Of a DNA stretch of 64,000 bases, positions 4,184 through 20,746 are shown piece after piece (position 1 is the first letter of the stretch; the number at the start of each line of letters is the position of its first letter). The notes beneath the pieces were generated by a model. That model was given only the letters and a program-made list of their open reading frames with translations. It made no database searches and was not told the DNA's origin. Source of the stretch: Myxococcota bacterium (GTDB lineage: Bacteria > Myxococcota_A > Polyangia > Nannocystales > Nannocystaceae). The stretch covers positions 384,001 to 448,000 of the forward strand of contig JBCCHT010000003.1 of NCBI GenBank assembly GCA_039028615.1. Reading direction: 5' to 3'. A program made the translations under genes and the position numbers.

Positions 4184-4867
4184 ATGGGGTCGCATTCGCG
4201 GCCGGGGTCCGCGGGACCTCGGCCTCGTGTCGTCGTGGTCGGCGGTCACCGCTCGTTGGTGGTCGACGAAGGCTGGTGGCCGTTGCTCGATGCCCTACGA
4301 AAACAGCAGGGCTTCGATCGGGTTTGGCATGGTGCGCGAGGCGGGGCCGATCACGGGGTCGCGGCGTGGGCCGAGGCACGAGGTATGGAGGTGGTCGCGT
4401 TCCCGGCTCCCGTCGAGCTGTATCGGGCCTCGGGGCTGTCCGAGTCCGAGGCCGAGCTGCGACGCAACGACGACATGCTGCGAGCGTGGGGGGGCTACCG
4501 AGAGCGCGGCGGCTCGATCGTCCCGTGTGCTCGAGCCGGTGGTTTTGCTCAGATGGTGCTGGCGCTCGCCCCTGACGACGACACTCGTGATCTGGTGGAC
4601 CGCGCCCGACAGTGGCGATCGTTGCGGGTGATCGAGCTATGGCCGCCGCGAAGGCAGTGGCGGGTCCGAGGTCCGCGGGTGGACGCGGAGCTCACGACGC
4701 TGGGTGACGTGGTGGTGGAGGCCGACCTGCCCTTGCGCTGGGCGGTGGGCCAGACGCGGGCGCAGCTCCGCCAGAACTTCGCCCGTCGGGGCTGGCGGGC
4801 GCACGGCATCGGTGTGCCGTGCCACCAAAGCGAAGGGCCGCGCCCTCGAGAGGACGCGGCCCAGTAG
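4184..4867 (+). CDS. SLOG superfamily (YspA/DUF2493-like) protein
   Basis: VVVVGGHRS...VWHGARGGAD...AWAEARG pattern typical of DUF2493/SLOG; extra C-terminal domain. Confidence 0.6.
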   Translation: MGSHSRPGSAGPRPRVVVVGGHRSLVVDEGWWPLLDALRKQQGFDRVWHGARGGADHGVAAWAEARGMEVVAFPAPVELYRASGLSESEAELRRNDDMLRAWGGYRERGGSIVPCARAGGFAQMVLALAPDDDTRDLVDRARQWRSLRVIELWPPRRQWRVRGPRVDAELTTLGDVVVEADLPLRWAVGQTRAQLRQNFARRGWRAHGIGVPCHQSEGPRPREDAAQ

Positions 4868-6476: not shown

Positions 6477-6681
6477 CTGAAAGTCGTCCCTTCGTCTCTC
6501 TTTGAGCTCCGCTGCCACACAGGCTTTGGAACCTGGCCAGAGTAAGCCAGGCAGCCTGCGCTTCCAAGGACGCGACCGGCCCGGTGCGACGGTGTGAGAG
6601 GGCCCACCTTCGCCCACAAAAGGCCGCGCGAGGTTTGGTCCTAGGGCATGAGGGACCTTGGCCCCAGCGCGGCGTCGTGCG

Positions 6682-9600
6682 ATGTCAGACCCTCGCATGG
6701 CGAGCCATCCGATCCGTCGCCGATATCTCGTCGAGTCCCTGATTCGACAGCGGCGAGCCGATGAACAGCCGCGCTATGTCGCGTCTCAGAGAGCGGGGCG
6801 TATCGACCCCAACCCGCACCAGATCGATGCCGTGATCTTTGCCCTCCAGCGGATCCCGGAGGGGGGATGCATCCTGGCCGACGAAGTGGGCCTCGGCAAG
6901 ACGATCGAGGCCGGATTGGTCATCGCGCAACGTCGCGCCGAAGGAGCACGGCGAATCCTACTCATCACGCCAAAGCCGCTGATGGGGCAGTGGGGCCACG
7001 AATTGTGGACGCTATTTGGAATCGAGACCGAGGAGATCGGCGCCGATACGGATCTGCGAAGGCCGGGTGTGTACCTGATTGGGCGCGAGCAAGCCGGGGG
7101 CGAAAGAGGCGCAGATCGGTTGTTGCAGGTCGCGCCTTTCGATTTGTGTGTCATCGACGAGGCCCACGAGATTTTTGCCGGGCTCTACAAACGCTATGAC
7201 CGACATGGTCGTTTTCGTCGTCGCGGGCGACAGGCTCGCATGGCGGCCCGCGTCAAGCGGGCGTTGGCCGACACCCCCGTACTCTTACTGACCGCGACCC
7301 CCATCCAGAACTCCCTGACGGAGCTTTGGGGGTTGGTCCAGTACGTCGAGCCGACGGGGACTCTCCTCGGTGATTTACCCACATTCCGCAGCCTCTTTTG
7401 CGCGGGAGATGATCGCAATCTGCGACAAGGCCAGGACGAGGAATTGCGTCGTCGGGTGGCCACCGTGTGTCAGCGGACGCTGCGGCGGCAAGCGCAGGCG
7501 TTCATGAAGCGTCCCTTTGTCGACCGCCAGGCGCGGCTGTTCGAGTACAGCATGGGGCCGGAGCAGCGGTCGCTATACGAGGACGTCACCCGCTACCTGC
7601 TGAAGCCCGACCTGTGCGCGTTTCGGGGCGGGCAGCGGCGCCTGCTCTTGCTCGGGTTTCACCGCCGCATGGCGTCCTCGCTCGAGGCCCTGGCGTCGAG
7701 CTTGGAGACCGTGGCCGGGCGCTTGCGCACCATGCTGCTGCCCGCGGTCGGTCGGGGAAAACGCCGCGACGATCAGACGCTCGCGTTGTTCGGCGCATCG
7801 GTGGCGCCGGCCGAGACTCGCGACGATCTCCAGCAGTTCACGGCCGATCTCGAGGACGAGGAGCGCGAGCAGATCGGGACCGACGACGACGAGCTCGACG
7901 AGGAGGAGCGCGAAGCCGCGAGCGATCCGGTCGAGCTCGACGAGGCCGACGCCACGCTGCCCGACACCAAGGTGCGGCGCGAGCTCGCTCTGGTCGAAGA
8001 CTTCATCGCGCGGGCGCGGTCGTGCCCGGCCGACGCCAAGCTCTCGCAGCTGATCCAGGCGTTGCGCCTCGCCATCGCTCGACCCGAGGGCACGGGCAAG
8101 GCGGTCATCTTCACCGAGTCGCTCGCCACCCAGGACTACCTACGCCGCAGCCTCATCGAGGACGGGGTGGTGAGCGACCAGGAGATCACGCTCTTCCGCG
8201 GCACCAACACCGGGCCCCGCGTGCAGGAGGCACTCACCCGCTGGACGGACGAGGTGGGCGACTCCACGCCGGGCGCCTCGCCCAGCCGCAACGTCGCGGT
8301 ACGACTGGCCCTGGTCCACGAGTTCGCCACCCGGTCCCGCGTGCTCATCTCCACCGAGGCGGGGGCCAAGGGGCTCAACCTGCAGTTTTGCGACACGGTG
8401 GTCAACTACGACTTGCCCTGGAATCCGCAGCGGATCGAGCAGCGAATCGGTCGCTGCCATCGCTACGGGCAGACGCGGGGCGTCACCGTGATCAACTTCC
8501 TCAACCGCGACAACGCGGCGCAGCGCCTCACCTTCGAGATCTTGAGCCGCAAGCTCGATCTGTTCGGCACCGTGCTCGATGCCTCCGACGTGGTGCTGCA
8601 CGAGCCGGGCAGCCTCGCCCCCGAGACCCTGGCCGGGGCGCTGGGCATGGACTTCGAGGCTCAGCTGCGGAGCATCTACGAGCGGGCGCGGAGCGTGGAG
8701 GAGATCGAGGCCGACCTCGCGGCGCTCCGCGACGACATGACGGGCAAGCGCGACGAGTTCGAGGACACCTATCGCCGCACGGCGGGGCTGATCGAGAGCC
8801 GGCTCGACGAGACGGTCCGCGGCAGCTTCGCCCACCTGCAGAGCCGGCTCTCCGGGGGCCTGGCCGAGTTCGATGCCCAGCTCGCCGGGGTGCTCCAGCG
8901 CTATCTCCAGGCCATCGAGGCGCCCTACGAGGTGGTCGACCAGGGGGCGGCGCAGCGCTACGAGGTCGAGGCTTGCCCCGCGCTGCCCGAGGATTTTCGG
9001 CAGGGCGTCTCGGTGCTCGTGGGCCCGCGTGGTCCCGACGACGAGGCATCGGTCGAGCGCCTGCACCTCGGCCATGCGCTGCTGCAGGCGGCGGTGCGCG
9101 AGGCGAGAGCGGCGACTCGCGATCCCTTCGTGGTCAATGCCGACCCGTGCGATCACCCCGGGCTCGTCGAGCATCGCGGGCAGCGGGGGCGCATGGTCTT
9201 GCTGATGATCACCTACGAGGGCTTCGAACCGGTGGAGAGCCTGTGCCCGGTCGCCCTGATGGAAGACGGCCGCGTGCTGTCGGTGGACGCGGCCGAGCAC
9301 CTGCTCTCCCACGCCGCGCTCGAGGACCTGCCGCAGCTCGAGCCCGCGCTGACCCTCGATGCGCTCGACCTCGACGACGCCGTCGAGGAGCGGCAGTTTC
9401 TCGATCGCGCCGCCATCGAGCCCCACGAGCGGGGGCGGCTGGCCGAGGCCCTCGATCGCATCGAGCGGCACATGGACGATCGGGTCATGGTCTGGGAGCA
9501 GCGTCGGGACGAGCTGACGGCCCGGGTCGAGCGCGCCCGGACCCGTCGAGATGCCGCTGCTGGCGCGGCGGCGCGGGAGCGCGCGGAGACCGAGCTTCGC

Positions 9601-9759
9601 CTCCAGGAAGAGGAGCGACAGGCGGCTACGGACGAGATCTCGCGGCTTCGGGCCCGAGATGACGAAGACTACGAAACCTGGCGCCTCGGCGCCCTCCAGC
9701 GGCGATACAACGTCCCTCGCACCGCCCGGATCCTCGACGTGGAGTTCAGCATCCAATGA
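6682..9759 (+). CDS. SNF2-family (SF2) helicase with long C-terminal extension
   Basis: PHQ, LADEVGLGKT, IDEAH, LTATP, VIFTES, STEAGAKGLNLQ and EQRIGRCHR motifs; start 6682 or 6697. Confidence 0.92.
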   Translation: MSDPRMASHPIRRRYLVESLIRQRRADEQPRYVASQRAGRIDPNPHQIDAVIFALQRIPEGGCILADEVGLGKTIEAGLVIAQRRAEGARRILLITPKPLMGQWGHELWTLFGIETEEIGADTDLRRPGVYLIGREQAGGERGADRLLQVAPFDLCVIDEAHEIFAGLYKRYDRHGRFRRRGRQARMAARVKRALADTPVLLLTATPIQNSLTELWGLVQYVEPTGTLLGDLPTFRSLFCAGDDRNLRQGQDEELRRRVATVCQRTLRRQAQAFMKRPFVDRQARLFEYSMGPEQRSLYEDVTRYLLKPDLCAFRGGQRRLLLLGFHRRMASSLEALASSLETVAGRLRTMLLPAVGRGKRRDDQTLALFGASVAPAETRDDLQQFTADLEDEEREQIGTDDDELDEEEREAASDPVELDEADATLPDTKVRRELALVEDFIARARSCPADAKLSQLIQALRLAIARPEGTGKAVIFTESLATQDYLRRSLIEDGVVSDQEITLFRGTNTGPRVQEALTRWTDEVGDSTPGASPSRNVAVRLALVHEFATRSRVLISTEAGAKGLNLQFCDTVVNYDLPWNPQRIEQRIGRCHRYGQTRGVTVINFLNRDNAAQRLTFEILSRKLDLFGTVLDASDVVLHEPGSLAPETLAGALGMDFEAQLRSIYERARSVEEIEADLAALRDDMTGKRDEFEDTYRRTAGLIESRLDETVRGSFAHLQSRLSGGLAEFDAQLAGVLQRYLQAIEAPYEVVDQGAAQRYEVEACPALPEDFRQGVSVLVGPRGPDDEASVERLHLGHALLQAAVREARAATRDPFVVNADPCDHPGLVEHRGQRGRMVLLMITYEGFEPVESLCPVALMEDGRVLSVDAAEHLLSHAALEDLPQLEPALTLDALDLDDAVEERQFLDRAAIEPHERGRLAEALDRIERHMDDRVMVWEQRRDELTARVERARTRRDAAAGAAARERAETELRLQEEERQAATDEISRLRARDDEDYETWRLGALQRRYNVPRTARILDVEFSIQ

Positions 9760-10910
9760 GCGATCCCCAGGACGACGACGTGGCTCTCAAGCTCCTACAT
9801 ACCGCCGACTGGCACCTCGGTCGGCGCTTCCCTCAGTTCCCCGACGATGTCGCGCTGGAGCTGATGCGAGCGCGGATGTCGGTCATCGATGCGATCCTCG
9901 GCGCCGCGGCGCACAACGAGGTCGATGCGGTGCTGTGTGCGGGTGACCTCTTCGATGCCCCGCAGCCCGACGAAGAGTGGTGGCGCCCGCTCGCGGACAA
10001 GCTCAGCCGCCACGCCAAGGCCGAGCGCCCCGTGGTGTTGCTGCCCGGCAACCACGACCCGCTGACTCCGGGCTCGGTCTATCACCCCGATCATCCCTTC
10101 GTGCACGCGCTGGGCGAGCACGTGCACGTGGTCGACCGCGACGACTTCACGCTCGCGCTGTCGCCCGAGGCCACGCTCTACGCTCGACCCTGCCGCAGCC
10201 GCGCCGAAGGCCTCGACCTGGCCATGGCCCTGCCCGAGCGCGAAGAGGGAGACACCTCGATCCGCATCGGCATGGTGCACGGCTCGACCTTCGACATGCC
10301 GGAGTTCCAGACCAACTTCCCCATCGCCAAGGATGCGGCGGTGAAGCGGGGCTTCGACTACCTGGCCATCGGGGATACGCATGCCTATCGCGTCTACGAC
10401 CCGCCGGAGTCGCCCACCGTGTACCCCGGGGCCCCCGAGCCCACGACCTTCGGTGAGCGCGACGTCGGGCATGTCGCGCTGGTGTTCTTCGGCCGTCGGC
10501 GTCGGCGGCCGCTGATCCGACCCGAGCGGGTGGCTCGCTTCGTGTGGGAGGAGCGGGTGATCGAGGACCTGCCCGCGCTGCGGAGGCTTCGCGACGAAGA
10601 CCTGCGACGGACCGTGCTGCGCCTGGTGCTGCGCCTGCGCGTGAGCCCGGCCGAGCGCGACGAGGTCGACGAGATCCTCCAGGCGTTGTCGGGGACCTCC
10701 TCGCGACACGGGCAAGCGGCGGTGCTCCAGGTCGACGGCAGCGGGCTGCAGCTCGACGCCTCCGATCTCGGCGATGCCCTCGAGGGGCTGCCCCAGGTGC
10801 TCACCGAGACGGCGGAGCGACTGCGGGCCCAGGCGGCCGAGCCCGGCGAAGAAGGAGAGCTGGCCCAGCGGGCGCTCTATCACCTCTACCGCCTGGTGAG
10901 GTCGGGCTGA
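9756..10910 (+). CDS. Mre11/SbcD-like metallophosphoesterase nuclease (YhaO-type)
   Basis: HTADWHLG, AGDLFD, PGNHD, HG and GDTH motifs; ATGA overlap with the helicase. Confidence 0.9.
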   Translation: MSDPQDDDVALKLLHTADWHLGRRFPQFPDDVALELMRARMSVIDAILGAAAHNEVDAVLCAGDLFDAPQPDEEWWRPLADKLSRHAKAERPVVLLPGNHDPLTPGSVYHPDHPFVHALGEHVHVVDRDDFTLALSPEATLYARPCRSRAEGLDLAMALPEREEGDTSIRIGMVHGSTFDMPEFQTNFPIAKDAAVKRGFDYLAIGDTHAYRVYDPPESPTVYPGAPEPTTFGERDVGHVALVFFGRRRRRPLIRPERVARFVWEERVIEDLPALRRLRDEDLRRTVLRLVLRLRVSPAERDEVDEILQALSGTSSRHGQAAVLQVDGSGLQLDASDLGDALEGLPQVLTETAERLRAQAAEPGEEGELAQRALYHLYRLVRSG

Positions 10911-10913
10911 CCC

Positions 10914-13900
10914 ATGCGCCTGCTGTCGATCGGCGTGCGCAGCTTCGGCTGCATCGAGGAGGCCAAGCTCGAGCTGCGGCCGGGCCTCAACGTGCTCTAC
11001 GGCCCCAACGACCTGGGCAAGTCGACGCTGGTGCATGCGATTCGGGCCGCGCTGTTGCTGCCGACCTCGCGCCGCGAGGCCGAACGCTTTCGTCCCTGGC
11101 ACCGCGACGTCACGCCCGAGGTCACGCTGGCCTTCGAGGCGCCAGACGAGCCTGGCTCCGATCGTCCGCCGCGGATCTGGCGGGTACGCAAGAGCTTCGG
11201 GGCGGGGCGCAAGGGCAGCGCCGAGCTGCACTGGTCCAACGACGGCGAGCACTTCTCCGTCGAGCAAAAGGGCGATGGCGTCGACGACAAGCTCCGCACG
11301 ATGCTGGGCTGGGGCGTGCCGGGGGCCCGGGCTCGAGGCCCTCGGGGTTTCCCGAGCTCGTTCCTCACCACGGTGCTGCTCGGCCCGCAGGCGGTGCCCG
11401 GCTCGATGCTGGGCAATAGCCTCGACGACGACCCCACCGACTCGGGCCGCGAGCGACTGACCGAGGCGCTGCAGGCCCTGGCGCAGGACCCCCGCTTCAA
11501 GGAGATCCTCGACGAGGCCCAGCGCAAGGTCGACGAAGCGTTCACGCCGACGGGTAAGCCTCGCAAGGGCAAGGCCTCGCCGCTGTCGCCGATCAAGCAG
11601 CGCATTCGCGAGCTCAGCGAAGAGCTTCGCCTGCAGCAAGAGCGCGTGCACGACAGCGACGACGTGCGCCAGCAGCTGCTCGCATTGGACCTCGAGCGCA
11701 TCGAGGCGGTGGCGGCTCGAGACGACGCGGAGAAGCAGTGGCAGCGGCAGCAGGCGCTGTTCGAGCGGGGACGGCAGCGGGCTGAGGCGCTGGCCCAGGT
11801 GCAGGAGGCCCGCGAGGCCCTCGAGCGCGGGCAGGCGGTGCTGGCCGATCGGCGGACGTGGCAGGAGGCGGTCGAGCGCCACATGCAGGGGCGGCCGGCG
11901 GCGGACGGCGCGTTGCTGCGGGCGGGTGAGGTCGAGCAGGCGGCGGCCCAGACCTTCGCCGAGGCCGAGGCCCACCTGCGGGCGATCGAGCAGGGGGGCG
12001 ACGCGGAGGCGAAGCTCGAGCGCCAGCAGCTCGAGACCCGACGACTGCAGCTCAAGGCCGAGCACGCGCAGGTCCACGAGCGACTGCGGCTGGCCGAGGA
12101 GGCCCTGGAAAAACGAGCCGAGGTCGAGACGGTGGCCGAGGCTCGCGATGCGCTGGCCCAGGACCTGGCCGCGAGCGAGCGGGCGGCCACCGATGCCGAG
12201 GCGGTGCGGCGCGAGGCCGACGCAGAGCAGCGGCTCTACGATGCGGCTTTGCGCCTGCGTCGCTACGAAGAGGCGGAGCAGCGGGTCGCCCATGCGCAGG
12301 AGGCCGAAGCGGAGGCCAACCGCTCGGTCGAAGAGGCGGAGAAGCTCGAGGCGCAGGCGCAAGCGATCGACGAAGCGGTGGCGGCCGAGGCCTTGCCGGA
12401 GCCGAGCGAGATCGATGGCTGGCGGGCGCTCGCCGAGGAGCGACGCATCGCCCAGGCGCGGCTGGAGGTCGGGCTCTCGGTCGTCGTGCACGGGACCCCG
12501 CCCGCGCAGGTGCAGGCGCGTGCCGACGACGGGGCCGAGGCGGTGGCCGAGCCGGGGCAGGCGATCGAGGCTCAGCGACGACTGTCGTTGGCGATGGGAC
12601 CGGACCTGCGGATCGAGATCGAAGGCGGGGACGCGAGCGCACGGGCGACCCGGGACGCGCTCGAGCAGCGCTGGGTCGACGAGGTCGCGCCCGTGCTGGT
12701 GCGCGTGGAGGTCGAAGATCTGGCCGGGCTGCGGGCGCGCATGGACAGCGCGCGGCAACGGCAAGCCGAGGCTCGCCAGCTCCGCGACAAGGCGGTGAGC
12801 ACCCGGCAGCTGGCCGAGGCCCGACGCGAGCGAGCGGTGGAGCTTCCTGCGCTGCGCGAGGCCCTGCAGGCCAGTCAAAACGCGCTCGCGGGGCTCGATC
12901 GCGCGCTGCTGCAAGAGCGGACGGGCGACTACGACGAGACCGAGCTGCGTCGTCGTCAGGCGCATGCCCAAGCGCGGGTCGACGAGGCTCGACATACGCA
13001 CGCGCAGGCCAAGTCGCGGTCGGCCCGCCTCGAGAGTCAAAAGGCCGCTCAGACCGAGCGTCACGACCGACTCGCCGCCGAGCTGGCCACGGTGCTGGCG
13101 CGCCTGCCCGGTTCGCCCGTCAGCGAGCGCGATACCGCCTTCGATCGCTTGGCTGCGCTCGAGGGGGAGATCGAGACGGTGGACGCCGAGCTGGCCGAGC
13201 ACGACGAGGCCCGGGCCCGTCGTCGTTCCGAGGCCGAGGCGGCGGTCAACGAGGCGCAGACCCAGGTCGATCAGGCTCGGCTGGCGACGTCGCTGGCCCG
13301 CCGTGAACTCGACGAGCGCAAGGAGGCCCTCGCTCAGGCAGAGGGGCGGCACGCACAGCTCGAGAGCCAGGCCGCCCAGATCGACGAAGCGGCGCTGAAG
13401 CGGGAGCTCGAAGAGCGACAGGCGGCGCTGAGCGAGCGGCCGGAGCCCCAGGAGACGGTCAGCGCGGAGTCGCTGGCTGAAGGCGAGCGGGCCTGGCAAC
13501 AACAGCAGCAGGCGCTGCGCGAGATCGAGGCCGCGCTCGAGCAACAACGCGGCGCGCTCAAGCAGGTCGGCGGCGCGGTGGCTCGCGAGGAAGCGGAGCG
13601 CACTCGGGAGGCGCTCGAGGCCACCAAGCAGGCCGAGCACGATCTCGAGCTCGACTACGAAGCGTGGCGCCTGTTGGCCCAGACCCTGCGTGAAGCGGAG
13701 ACGGCCGAAGGACGGCATCTCGGCGAGGCGCTGGGCGAGCCCGTGCACGAGCGCTTCGCCCAGCTCACGGGAGAGCGCTACGGGGCCCTGTCGCTGGGAC
13801 GCGACCTGCAAGCGGGGGGCCTCGAGGTGGCGGGGGAGCTGCGCGACGTCAAGGCGCTGTCCGAAGGCGTGCAGGATCAGCTCGCGACCATCCTGCGCCT

Positions 13901-14156
13901 GGCGGTGGCCGAGCAGCTCGGCTCCGCGCTGGTGCTCGACGATCACCTGGTGCAGACCGATCCGGCTCGCATCGCGTGGTTTCGCGAGCTGCTGGTCGAC
14001 GTGGGGCAGCGGGCCCAGATCCTCGTGCTCACGTGCCGCCCCGAGGACTACCTGGGGGCCGACGAGCGCCCGGCCGAGGGCGAGGCCTCGCGGGACAGCG
14101 ACGCGGTGCGGGCGGTGAGCCTGGCCTCGGTTATTCGGCGGGCCGGGAGCACCTAG
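10914..14156 (+). CDS. Rad50/SbcC-like coiled-coil ABC ATPase (YhaN-type)
   Basis: Walker A GPNDLGKST, long coiled coil, signature LSEG, Walker B LVLDD; 3-nt gap after the nuclease gene. Confidence 0.9.
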   Translation: MRLLSIGVRSFGCIEEAKLELRPGLNVLYGPNDLGKSTLVHAIRAALLLPTSRREAERFRPWHRDVTPEVTLAFEAPDEPGSDRPPRIWRVRKSFGAGRKGSAELHWSNDGEHFSVEQKGDGVDDKLRTMLGWGVPGARARGPRGFPSSFLTTVLLGPQAVPGSMLGNSLDDDPTDSGRERLTEALQALAQDPRFKEILDEAQRKVDEAFTPTGKPRKGKASPLSPIKQRIRELSEELRLQQERVHDSDDVRQQLLALDLERIEAVAARDDAEKQWQRQQALFERGRQRAEALAQVQEAREALERGQAVLADRRTWQEAVERHMQGRPAADGALLRAGEVEQAAAQTFAEAEAHLRAIEQGGDAEAKLERQQLETRRLQLKAEHAQVHERLRLAEEALEKRAEVETVAEARDALAQDLAASERAATDAEAVRREADAEQRLYDAALRLRRYEEAEQRVAHAQEAEAEANRSVEEAEKLEAQAQAIDEAVAAEALPEPSEIDGWRALAEERRIAQARLEVGLSVVVHGTPPAQVQARADDGAEAVAEPGQAIEAQRRLSLAMGPDLRIEIEGGDASARATRDALEQRWVDEVAPVLVRVEVEDLAGLRARMDSARQRQAEARQLRDKAVSTRQLAEARRERAVELPALREALQASQNALAGLDRALLQERTGDYDETELRRRQAHAQARVDEARHTHAQAKSRSARLESQKAAQTERHDRLAAELATVLARLPGSPVSERDTAFDRLAALEGEIETVDAELAEHDEARARRRSEAEAAVNEAQTQVDQARLATSLARRELDERKEALAQAEGRHAQLESQAAQIDEAALKRELEERQAALSERPEPQETVSAESLAEGERAWQQQQQALREIEAALEQQRGALKQVGGAVAREEAERTREALEATKQAEHDLELDYEAWRLLAQTLREAETAEGRHLGEALGEPVHERFAQLTGERYGALSLGRDLQAGGLEVAGELRDVKALSEGVQDQLATILRLAVAEQLGSALVLDDHLVQTDPARIAWFRELLVDVGQRAQILVLTCRPEDYLGADERPAEGEASRDSDAVRAVSLASVIRRAGST

Positions 14157-14686
14157 TGGTCGCCGAGGATCCGGCCTGGGTCGTCGCCATCGACGTCGAC
14201 TATCGCGACGACCAGGGGCAGGCGGCCACGGCCGGGGTCTGCTTCACCGACTGGCGGGCGGCCGAGCCCACGCACGAGGCCACCGTGCTCGTCTCCGGGG
14301 TCCAGGCGTATGTCCCGGGGGACTTCTATCGTCGCGAGCTGCCGTGCATCCTCGAGCTGTTGCGGGCGCTCGAGCACGAGGTCGGCATGGTGGTCGTGGA
14401 TGGCTATGTCTGGCTGTCCGAGGACGGCCGGCCCGGCTTGGGGGCGCACGTCTACGAGGCTCTGGGGCGTCGCGTGCCCGTGGTGGGCGTGGCGAAGAAC
14501 TCGTTCGCCGGGTCGCCCATGGCCATCGAGGTACGACGCGGACAGAGCCAGCGCCCCTTGTTCGTGACCACTGTGGGGGTGGAGGCCGAAGAGGCGGCGC
14601 GATGGGTGGAGTCGATGCACGGGCCCTACCGGATCCCCACCTTGCTCAAGCGCGTCGATGCCCTGGCGCGAGCGTACCCGCGCTGA
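14156..14686 (+). CDS. Endonuclease V family protein
   Basis: AIDVDY, YVPG wedge, RRELP, VVDGY, GVAK and PLFVT motifs; GTG overlaps the upstream TAG by 1 nt. Confidence 0.8.
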   Translation: MVAEDPAWVVAIDVDYRDDQGQAATAGVCFTDWRAAEPTHEATVLVSGVQAYVPGDFYRRELPCILELLRALEHEVGMVVVDGYVWLSEDGRPGLGAHVYEALGRRVPVVGVAKNSFAGSPMAIEVRRGQSQRPLFVTTVGVEAEEAARWVESMHGPYRIPTLLKRVDALARAYPR

Positions 14687-19153: not shown

Positions 19154-20746
19154 TCACCCGCGATGGCCCTGCAGGTACCCGGCCATGAGTGCTGGTTCGG
19201 TGGCGTGCTTCATCGCTTCTTCCGTCGTCAACATGCCGCGTCTCACCAAGCTGGCCATGCACGCCTCGAACGAGAGCATGCCGTCGGCGCGACCCTTCTG
19301 AATCTCGCTTTGGATCTGGTGGCCACGGCCCTCGCGGATCTTGGTGGCGACGGGCGTATTGACCCGCAGTATCTCGACGGCGGGCACGCGCTGCGGCCAA
19401 GTGCGCCCCGGTAGGAGCCGCTGGGTGACGATGGCCCGCAGCGCCCCCGCGAGCTGGAAGCGAACCTGCCCCTGCTGATGCTCGGGGAACGAGTCGATCA
19501 CGCGATCGAGGGCCATGGCCGCGTCGGCGGCATGAAGTGTGCTGAGCACCAGGTGACCCGTCTCGGCGGCGGTCAGGGCGGCGGCCATCGTCTCGTGGTC
19601 TCGCATCTCGCCCACCAGGATCACGTCGGGGCTCTCGCGCAGGGCGGAGCGCAGGCCTTCGCTGAACGAGCTGACGTGCACGCCGAGCTGTCGCTGATGC
19701 ACCAGCGCCCGACGATGCTGATACTGATACTCGATCGGATCTTCGAGGGTGATGATGTGCTTGGCCGCGCTGCGATTGAGCTGCTCGATGAGCGCGACCA
19801 AGGTGGTGGACTTGCCCGAGCCCGCGGTGCCGGTCATCAACACCAGCCCGCTGCGCAGCGCGACGAGGGGACCGAGCTCGGCGGGGAGGTTCAGCACGTC
19901 GAGCGTCGGCGGATCGGCGCGGACCGGTCGCAGCGCGAGCGCCAGCCCGCTGCTCTGCAAGAACAGGTTGCCGCGATAGCGCTGGGCCCGGCCTTGGGTA
20001 CCGATGCGCAGCGCGAGGTCGGCACTGCCGCGGTTGTGGAGCTCATGCCGAGCCCTCGGCCCGAACACGGGGGCCACCAGCGCCCGCAGCTGGTTCTCGT
20101 CCACCGGGTGCTGGCCGAGCTCGGTCAGCTCCCCGCCGATGCGCAGGCGAACGTTGCTGCCGTGGGACAGCAGGATGTCGCTGGCGTTCTCGTCGTGCGC
20201 CCGAGCCAAGATGGCGGCGAAGGGCCCGGGGTCGAGCAGCGGATCGGCGGTGATGGCCTCGAGCGCAGGCGGCTGCGTCGGCGGAGGCGGCGGTTGGTTG
20301 GCCGCGGCCGGGGTCGAGGTGCTCTCGGGCGGAGGAGGCGGTGGCGTGGCCGCGGTGAGATCGGGCGGCGCACTCGGAAAGGAGGGCGCCGGCTTCGGTG
20401 GCTCGTCGGCGGCCGGAGTTGACGATTGCGTCGCCGTGTCCTCGCTCTTGTGACGAAGTGTCAGCCGAGGCCCGTCGGCGCGGGGCTCCACGAGCACGCC
20501 GTAGGTGTTCCCGTCCTCGGCGTCGTAGCTGGTCTCGACGTTGTGTCCTTCGCCCAGGCTCTGGCGCTGGCTCGAATCGAGCAGGTCCTGGAGCATGGAC
20601 TCGACCATGTCGCGGCCGAGCGCGGGCATCGACAGCGTCTGCGGCTCGCCTCGCTTGGAGAGCCAGGGCGGCTCGGTCGAGGGAATGACCAACAGATCTG
20701 CCCGCTGCGCGGACATGAGATTGAGTAAGGAGTCGACGAGAGCCAT
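19154..20746 (-). CDS. PilT/PilU-family retraction ATPase with an extra N-terminal domain
   Basis: ASDI, GTAGSGKSTT, TLEDPIE, LRESPDVILVGEMRD, AETGHLVLSTLH. Confidence 0.9.
   Translation of the reverse strand: MALVDSLLNLMSAQRADLLVIPSTEPPWLSKRGEPQTLSMPALGRDMVESMLQDLLDSSQRQSLGEGHNVETSYDAEDGNTYGVLVEPRADGPRLTLRHKSEDTATQSSTPAADEPPKPAPSFPSAPPDLTAATPPPPPPESTSTPAAANQPPPPPTQPPALEAITADPLLDPGPFAAILARAHDENASDILLSHGSNVRLRIGGELTELGQHPVDENQLRALVAPVFGPRARHELHNRGSADLALRIGTQGRAQRYRGNLFLQSSGLALALRPVRADPPTLDVLNLPAELGPLVALRSGLVLMTGTAGSGKSTTLVALIEQLNRSAAKHIITLEDPIEYQYQHRRALVHQRQLGVHVSSFSEGLRSALRESPDVILVGEMRDHETMAAALTAAETGHLVLSTLHAADAAMALDRVIDSFPEHQQGQVRFQLAGALRAIVTQRLLPGRTWPQRVPAVEILRVNTPVATKIREGRGHQIQSEIQKGRADGMLSFEACMASLVRRGMLTTEEAMKHATEPALMAGYLQGHRG

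Follow-up and report, generated by a model that had tools for sequence, protein, structure and literature searches.

The question raised by this locus is whether four neighbouring genes of a Myxococcota bacterium (Nannocystaceae) form a system of their own, and whether such a system would serve defence against foreign DNA or DNA repair. The genes lie in the window, the stretch of 64,000 nucleotides (nt) that was analysed (assembly GCA_039028615.1, contig JBCCHT010000003.1, positions 384,001 to 448,000 of the forward strand), and were read in the initial annotation as one candidate undescribed unit of an SNF2 helicase, an Mre11/SbcD-type nuclease, a Rad50/SbcC-type ATPase and endonuclease V (EndoV). 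Three of them constitute a real, cross-phylum and near-obligate module (the trio) built from known parts, a combination that was not found described in the literature searched. The genes concerned are as follows (positions in the window):

6682..9759, + strand: SNF2-family DNA translocase with the RapA/DrmD/BrxHII architecture but no N-terminal Tudor domain; core member
9756..10910, + strand: Mre11/SbcD-like metallophosphoesterase nuclease (HTADWH, GDLF, GNHD, HG, GDTH); core member
10914..14156, + strand: ABC ATPase of Rad50/SbcC type, with long coiled coils but lacking the CxxC zinc hook; core member
14156..14686, + strand: EndoV (Pfam PF04493, 55 bits), translationally coupled here, outside the conserved module

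All coordinates were re-checked, and the four open reading frames (ORFs; 1025, 384, 1080 and 176 amino acids (aa), respectively) were confirmed together with the three tight junctions claimed for them: an ATGA overlap at 9756, a 3-nt gap at 10911-10913 and a TAG/GTG overlap of 1 nt at 14156. The Pfam families found were SNF2-rel_dom and Helicase_C, Metallophos, SMC_N/AAA_15 (below cut-off) and Endonuclease_5, in gene order. The SNF2 gene probably starts at 6697 (MASHPIRRR) rather than at 6682, because its two closest orthologues begin there.

Linkage was followed at SNF2-anchored genome loci (the best 80 of 533), 38 of which carry an SNF2 of at least 44% identity and the other 42 one of 30-38%. 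Among the 38 close loci the nuclease gene is next to SNF2 in 31 and all three genes are present in 29; of the nine without the full trio, six are cut off by a contig edge (five inside the SNF2 gene, one inside the nuclease gene), two hold SNF2 fragments without partners (L084, L089), and at one the nuclease is truncated and the ATPase missing (L059). The close loci stem from Myxococcota, Acidobacteriota, Pseudomonadota, Rokuibacteriota, Spirochaetota and Armatimonadota-labelled records, and the spread of this SNF2 is patchy, with about 8 of 401 genomes of the phylum carrying it. With close metagenome nucleases (n=41), an SNF2 tail was found upstream in 35/35 having at least 300 nt there (32 by tblastn, 3 by profile) and the ATPase downstream in 33/33 having 300 nt there; an SNF2 was beside 0/38 distant metagenome nucleases. 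The gene trees of 26 loci with three full-length genes had 11-12 of 14-16 splits (support at least 0.9) in common and at most one in conflict, and the pairwise distances of the trio genes were correlated at 0.39-0.64 (shuffled maxima 0.22-0.30). Phyla are intermixed in these trees, whose concordance shows joint inheritance and not physical contact. No conserved fourth gene was found; the three core clusters alone recur widely. The neighbourhood search proposed earlier thus bore out the co-conservation of the SNF2, Mre11-like and Rad50-like genes across phyla, with no methyltransferase in the operon.

The conserved unit therefore has three genes and not four, as EndoV is unlinked outside this genome. 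EndoV was found beside the trio or SNF2 in 0/80 SNF2-anchored genome loci, 0/20 and 0/14 relative loci and 0/41 close metagenome loci, counts that were not summed because the sets partly overlap and many contigs are short. In the host family (61 genomes sampled, kin not independent), EndoV is single-copy in 39 genomes; of the 22 other family genomes with the SNF2, 20 have EndoV, in 20/20 on a different contig, and none was found in 2, although fragmented assemblies could mask adjacency in a few. EndoV occurs also in genera without the trio. It was rejected as a module member, being unlinked in all other sets of loci and on a separate contig in 20/20, and is, judged from these neighbourhoods, an incidental local neighbour in this genome only. 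The lack of co-conservation with the nuclease/ATPase pair was what the initial annotation had named as evidence against itself, and with EndoV not a member the idea that the system senses unusual bases is unsupported. The catalytic motif of EndoV is presumably intact. The SNF2 motifs are likewise intact, as had been claimed for all four proteins, but the ATPase and the nuclease carry variant motifs; these are common to the whole clade and hence not decay.

The SNF2 protein carries the motifs LADEVGLGKT, DEAH and QRIGRCHR. Its top NCBIfam match is DISARM_DrmD_b (380 bits against a cut-off of 950), and a second DISARM DrmD profile gave 197 bits (cut-off 610). RapA came first in Foldseek and PDB-sequence searches and is the best full-length structural match of the predicted model (pLDDT 77; TM 0.32-0.49). 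According to passages of PMC12839542, RapA, BrxHII and BR helicases have an SNF2 core and, after it, a pair of alpha+beta domains, of which the second bears a long helical insert; a C-terminal sheet with a helical insert agreeing with that description is seen in elements 749-1024 of the model. On the predicted architecture, the protein is a member of the RapA/BrxHII/DrmD class. The next-nearest SNF2s (the 42 loci of 30-38% identity among the best 80 of 533) lack the nuclease-ATPase pair in every case (0/42), and 33 of these loci hold a gene of one cluster, the representative of which is an N6/N4 methylase; 29/35 cluster members have a D/N-PP-Y/F motif, and restriction subunits are usually next. 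A long branch of the SNF2 tree separates the trio proteins from this methyltransferase-linked group. As the tree has no outgroup, the origin of the module SNF2 from that group can only be inferred: an SNF2 of the restriction-modification-linked kind would have joined a widespread hook-less nuclease-ATPase pair. The same genome holds a second DrmD-like SNF2 (312 bits, cut-off 610) on contig C34 (L368:3-18151), followed by an Eco57I-type methyltransferase and, about 6 kb beyond these genes, a DUF4011 helicase; this is a separate restriction-like locus.

The nuclease has Mre11/SbcD as its PDB-sequence matches and scores 74.9 bits with TIGR00619 (cut-off 77.65). GDTH is invariant in the trio nucleases where solved Mre11 has GHIH; the other Mre11 motifs are kept. 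The trio nucleases group in a single clade (38 rows, support 95/99) separate from canonical SbcD, and nearest to it, on long branches, are the nucleases of pairs without SNF2. Plasmid matches (H1-H25) were to a distant nuclease of a broader type (about 32% identity; SNF2 linkage unchecked), common on Rhizobium megaplasmids; such plasmid-borne relatives are annotated as 'DNA repair exonuclease'.

The ATPase carries Walker A GPNDLGKS, signature LSEGVQDQ, Walker B LVLDD and a TCR switch loop. Among 103 homologues the switch motif reads TCR in 77 and TCH in 15, with 11 unparsed, and a CxxC zinc hook was found in 0/36 and 0/103 homologues. The model (pLDDT 82.8, pTM 0.43) has a split head and long coils, with Foldseek matches to Smc5/6, MukB and Rad50. 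The hook position is predicted to be taken by another domain:

12462..12629, + strand: small beta domain predicted at the tip of the coiled coils (aa 517-572, modelled as six short strands), in the zinc-hook position

This domain may serve dimerisation. A profile of aa 492-604 matched the ATPases of SNF2-less pairs at L044, L045 and L047 (E 2e-6, 7e-6 and 1e-8), which are shorter than trio ATPases, and gave no match to the AAA_27-type ATPase of L050. An atlas search with the apex region returned unnamed clusters only, a lead at best. The closest named ATPase homologues are from Nannocystaceae and Myxococcota; in P0019, a cultured myxobacterium (source name Paraliomyxa miuraensis), an ATPase segment is 68% identical. 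Longer ATPase variants occur at L061:3906-8045 (1380 aa) and L063:14115-17960 (1282 aa), the added sequence having no Pfam match.

The trio was compared with known systems. With SbcCD/Mre11-Rad50 it shares the order of a nuclease gene and a coiled-coil ABC ATPase gene, Mre11 motifs I-III and a Rad50-like head; it differs in the absent CxxC hook (0/103), in GDTH for GHIH, LDD and TCR/TCH, in its score under the TIGR00619 cut-off and lack of a TIGR00618 match, in the separate clade and in the near-obligate SNF2. The Mre11-Rad50-HerA-NurA operon of archaea also couples the Mre11-Rad50 genes to a DNA motor, but the motor of the trio is an SNF2, NurA is absent, and RecB is kept in 20/23 carriers. 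A likeness to mycobacterial Rv1277/Rv1278 is possible as well. AAA_27 is taken here as the type of YhaN from Bacillus subtilis, the comparison covering the AAA_27 profile and the ATPase of L050. SbcE, as described in passages of PMC2811018, is a hook-less SbcC-like ATPase with a central domain, lies beside an SbcD-like nuclease and works in break repair. The SbcEF pair (YhaN/YhaO) of that species is alike in these features, but the trio ATPase gave no AAA_27 match where those of L049 and L052 score 144-151 bits, and the passages in question mention no SNF2. Membership in SbcEF was rejected because an AAA_27-type head is missing and the apex profile misses L050. Lamassu (LmuABC), according to passages of PMC12663957, derives from SbcCD and uses an SbcC-derived sensor of DNA ends for structure-based recognition in immunity, as is proposed here for the trio; the trio has a full Mre11 nuclease instead of LmuA/LmuC, no CxxC, and in addition the SNF2. 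Lamassu was rejected because the LmuB match of the ATPase is limited to the Walker A region (aa 1-76; PADLOC 2.0), LmuA and LmuC are absent and there is no conserved fourth gene. DISARM class I DrmD and the SNF2 helicases linked to type III restriction-modification share with the module SNF2 the top profile (DrmD_b) and the RapA-like architecture also described, in the passages of PMC12839542, for BrxHII and BR helicases. DISARM was rejected because the DrmD score is below cut-off, no methyltransferase or DrmA/B/C-like gene is among the window ORFs scanned, and no neighbour recurs; the sole PF09369 gene of the genome sits on another contig. With PADLOC 2.0, no model matched the nuclease, and the ATPase gave Walker A matches alone. 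The operon is not described in the passages of PMC2811018, PMC12288472, PMC10609372 and PMC11232893 or elsewhere in the literature searched (mostly open-access), and surveys of Rad50-like operons and supplements of defence screens could list it. The earlier statement that no named system has this combination is supported for the three-gene unit, within that literature and the PADLOC models.

The surroundings of the trio were scanned over 227 ORFs within 5 kb of 36 loci (27 outside the host family, 9 inside). Outside the family the enrichment in defence genes proposed for checking was found: a defence family was present at 11/27 loci compared with 2/30 control windows of 10 kb (Fisher p=0.0035), and at 17/27 compared with 6/30 (p=0.0013) when ambiguous and toxin-antitoxin families were added. 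The families are PglZ (L063), MTES_1575 helicase (L064, L076), Zorya-type EH_Signature (L065, L085), GmrSD (L067), AbiE (L069, with CRISPR RAMPs; L087, L090), OLD (L074) and Z1/ResIII (L078). Among the metagenome loci, defence neighbours were seen in 7 of the 23 longer ones (of 41), with shorter flanks and in one case by ResIII-type matches alone. Canonical SbcD is present in addition in 8/28 non-family hosts.

The most recurrent defence neighbour is a large SF1 helicase with an MTES_1575 nuclease, often with DUF4011 (L064, L076, L194, L202, L206, L339), and Zorya-type genes recur near the trio (L065, L085, L200).

These data are best explained, at about even probability, by a mobile structure-sensing nuclease module that is likely directed against phages or plasmids in most hosts and in the host family likely also stands in for SbcCD. 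Together the SNF2, the nuclease and the hook-less ATPase likely form a single machine that identifies DNA by its structure, such as a hairpin or an end that is free or capped by protein, and then cuts it. The ATPase dimer would clamp DNA, sense an end or a hairpin and switch on the nuclease, as in Mre11-Rad50/SbcCD and Lamassu (passages of PMC12663957 and PMC10586767). The SNF2 might translocate on double-stranded DNA, either to remove proteins that protect ends or block the way or to move DNA into the nuclease; this is the weakest step. Self and non-self would be told apart by DNA structure, so that no methylase would be needed.

Several observations weigh against a mobile defence module. The composition of the operon is host-like (GC 0.68-0.73, GC3 0.85-0.90; genome GC 0.68), and close trio members were not found on plasmids or viral contigs, which gave distant nucleases only. 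Linkage is broken in three family genomes, by inserts of 2.7 kb (L035) and about 8 kb (L343) and by an SNF2 on another contig (G013). The 30 control windows were drawn from 16 genomes, 14 contributing two windows each, with ten further windows left out, and the defence categories were fixed after the test loci had been seen and before the controls. Defence neighbours may mark insertion hotspots instead of function; inside the host family they were found at 0/9 loci. At L057 the trio lies near Ku and LigD. An SbcD over the cut-off is lacking in 20/28 non-family hosts (incomplete genomes; other Mre11-like types possible). In the host family the SNF2 is present in 23/61 genomes and absent from 11 genera, but genus-wide in g10 (8/8) and g15 (7/7) and present in 4/5 genomes of g1 plus this genome, and canonical SbcD was found in 0/23 carriers versus 13/38 other family genomes.

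The last points bear on a possible alternative to which a lower probability is given, namely that the trio acts in repair only: a non-orthologous SbcCD replacement would cut DNA at hairpins and at breaks blocked by proteins, which the SNF2 would clear, and would stand in islands merely through horizontal mobility. In this genome (96.7% complete) a second SbcCD-like pair was sought besides that of the trio, with none found and no TIGR00618 match obtained; a second TIGR00619 match was rejected as an unrelated metallophosphoesterase in a low-GC island. The search for a separate housekeeping sbcCD thus found none, and the operon, without being universal, is found throughout several genera and, within the family, does not co-occur with canonical SbcD. 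Sole occurrence together with genus-wide presence suggests a local repair role, in line with the SNF2-less pairs as nearest nucleases, with the annotation of relatives as 'DNA repair exonuclease' and with the break-repair function of hook-less SbcE (passages of PMC2811018). A role in repair only is opposed by the defence neighbours outside the host family, by the 8/28 non-family hosts in which the trio is extra to canonical SbcD, by two trio copies in G019 and G490, by the methyltransferase linkage of the nearest other SNF2 kin and by the upstream regions, in which no shared box like the lexA repeats was seen by eye. A replacement of RecBCD or resection by the trio was rejected, since RecB is kept in 20/23 carriers; for the same reason the SNF2 is not a resection substitute. 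The original reading as a defence or repair module accordingly survives for the undescribed-looking three-gene unit, with repair indicated locally, and is lost for EndoV.

The strongest form of the defence reading is regarded as less likely than not. In it a complete hook-less Mre11-Rad50 complex, driven by an SNF2 taken over from restriction systems, would constitute a so far undescribed immune system that destroys foreign DNA by its ends and needs no code of methylation, and one myxobacterial family would have made it its only SbcCD. Improbable is a cargo serving mobile elements themselves, which would process the ends of these elements or keep competitors out: genes for a relaxase, an integrase or a transposase are neighbours at L058, L059, L078, L079, L086, L203 and L212, but no close member is among plasmid or viral records and the trio is fixed in several genera among ordinary genes. 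A four-gene system in which EndoV would sense deaminated bases and hand nicks to the trio is very improbable, the coupling of EndoV and the ATPase gene here by a 1-nt overlap being opposed by the absent adjacency and separate contigs given above.

Further observations were made in the host family and its genomes. In genera g2 and g4 an AAA_27-type pair was seen at the four loci inspected, three times with a WYL link. At L049, L050 and L051 a WYL regulator directly precedes the Mre11-like gene and the AAA_27-type ATPase, with an additional metallophosphoesterase of about 800 aa downstream at L049 and L051. The second trio copies of G019 and G490 (L038, L347) lie beside a 1389-aa protein without a Pfam match, and at L038 the SNF2 is split into two ORFs. 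The genome under study has two recA over the cut-off and one lexA (C38:91255, C10:269779 and C1:321050), the upstream region of lexA carrying GTTCAG and CTGAAC motifs. On its contig C11 (L369, 181673-185574, minus strand), a low-GC (0.52-0.56) insert of three genes codes for a metallophosphoesterase, an ORC-CDC6-like ATPase (PF24389) and an unknown of 335 aa; it looks like an acquired defence or conflict cassette.

The genes flanking the operon are ordinary, and the other window ORFs scanned gave no match to a defence or mobile-element family, except for an ambiguous YspA/SLOG-family ORF (4184-4867, + strand), which is found at L034 too, 4.5 kb before the trio. A PilT-like secretion ATPase (T2SSE) with an extra N-terminal region is encoded at 19154-20746 (- strand). 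Neither a sigma-70 consensus site nor an informative terminator was found at the operon, and no shared operator was evident by eye across 20 upstream regions. One short element was noted by eye:

6677..6687, + strand: short conserved element GTGCGATGTCA, a short way upstream of the probable SNF2 start

Its letters are identical upstream in L033, with a GTGCGA core in L035, L037, L039, L040, L345 and L349, and it is a possible, speculative promoter element.

In Lamassu, SbcCD parts were turned to immunity after the nuclease had split off; the trio keeps the whole nuclease, has no hook and adds an SNF2 motor, and it is found both beside defence genes and as the sole SbcCD-like pair of a genome. 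Its three genes give a handle on the role of RapA/DrmD-class SNF2 proteins in bacterial defence and on the function of hook-less Rad50-like proteins. If the immune reading is true, the trio would be a surviving link between DNA repair and immunity, and would resemble, in bacteria, the way eukaryotes combine MRN with SNF2 remodelers.

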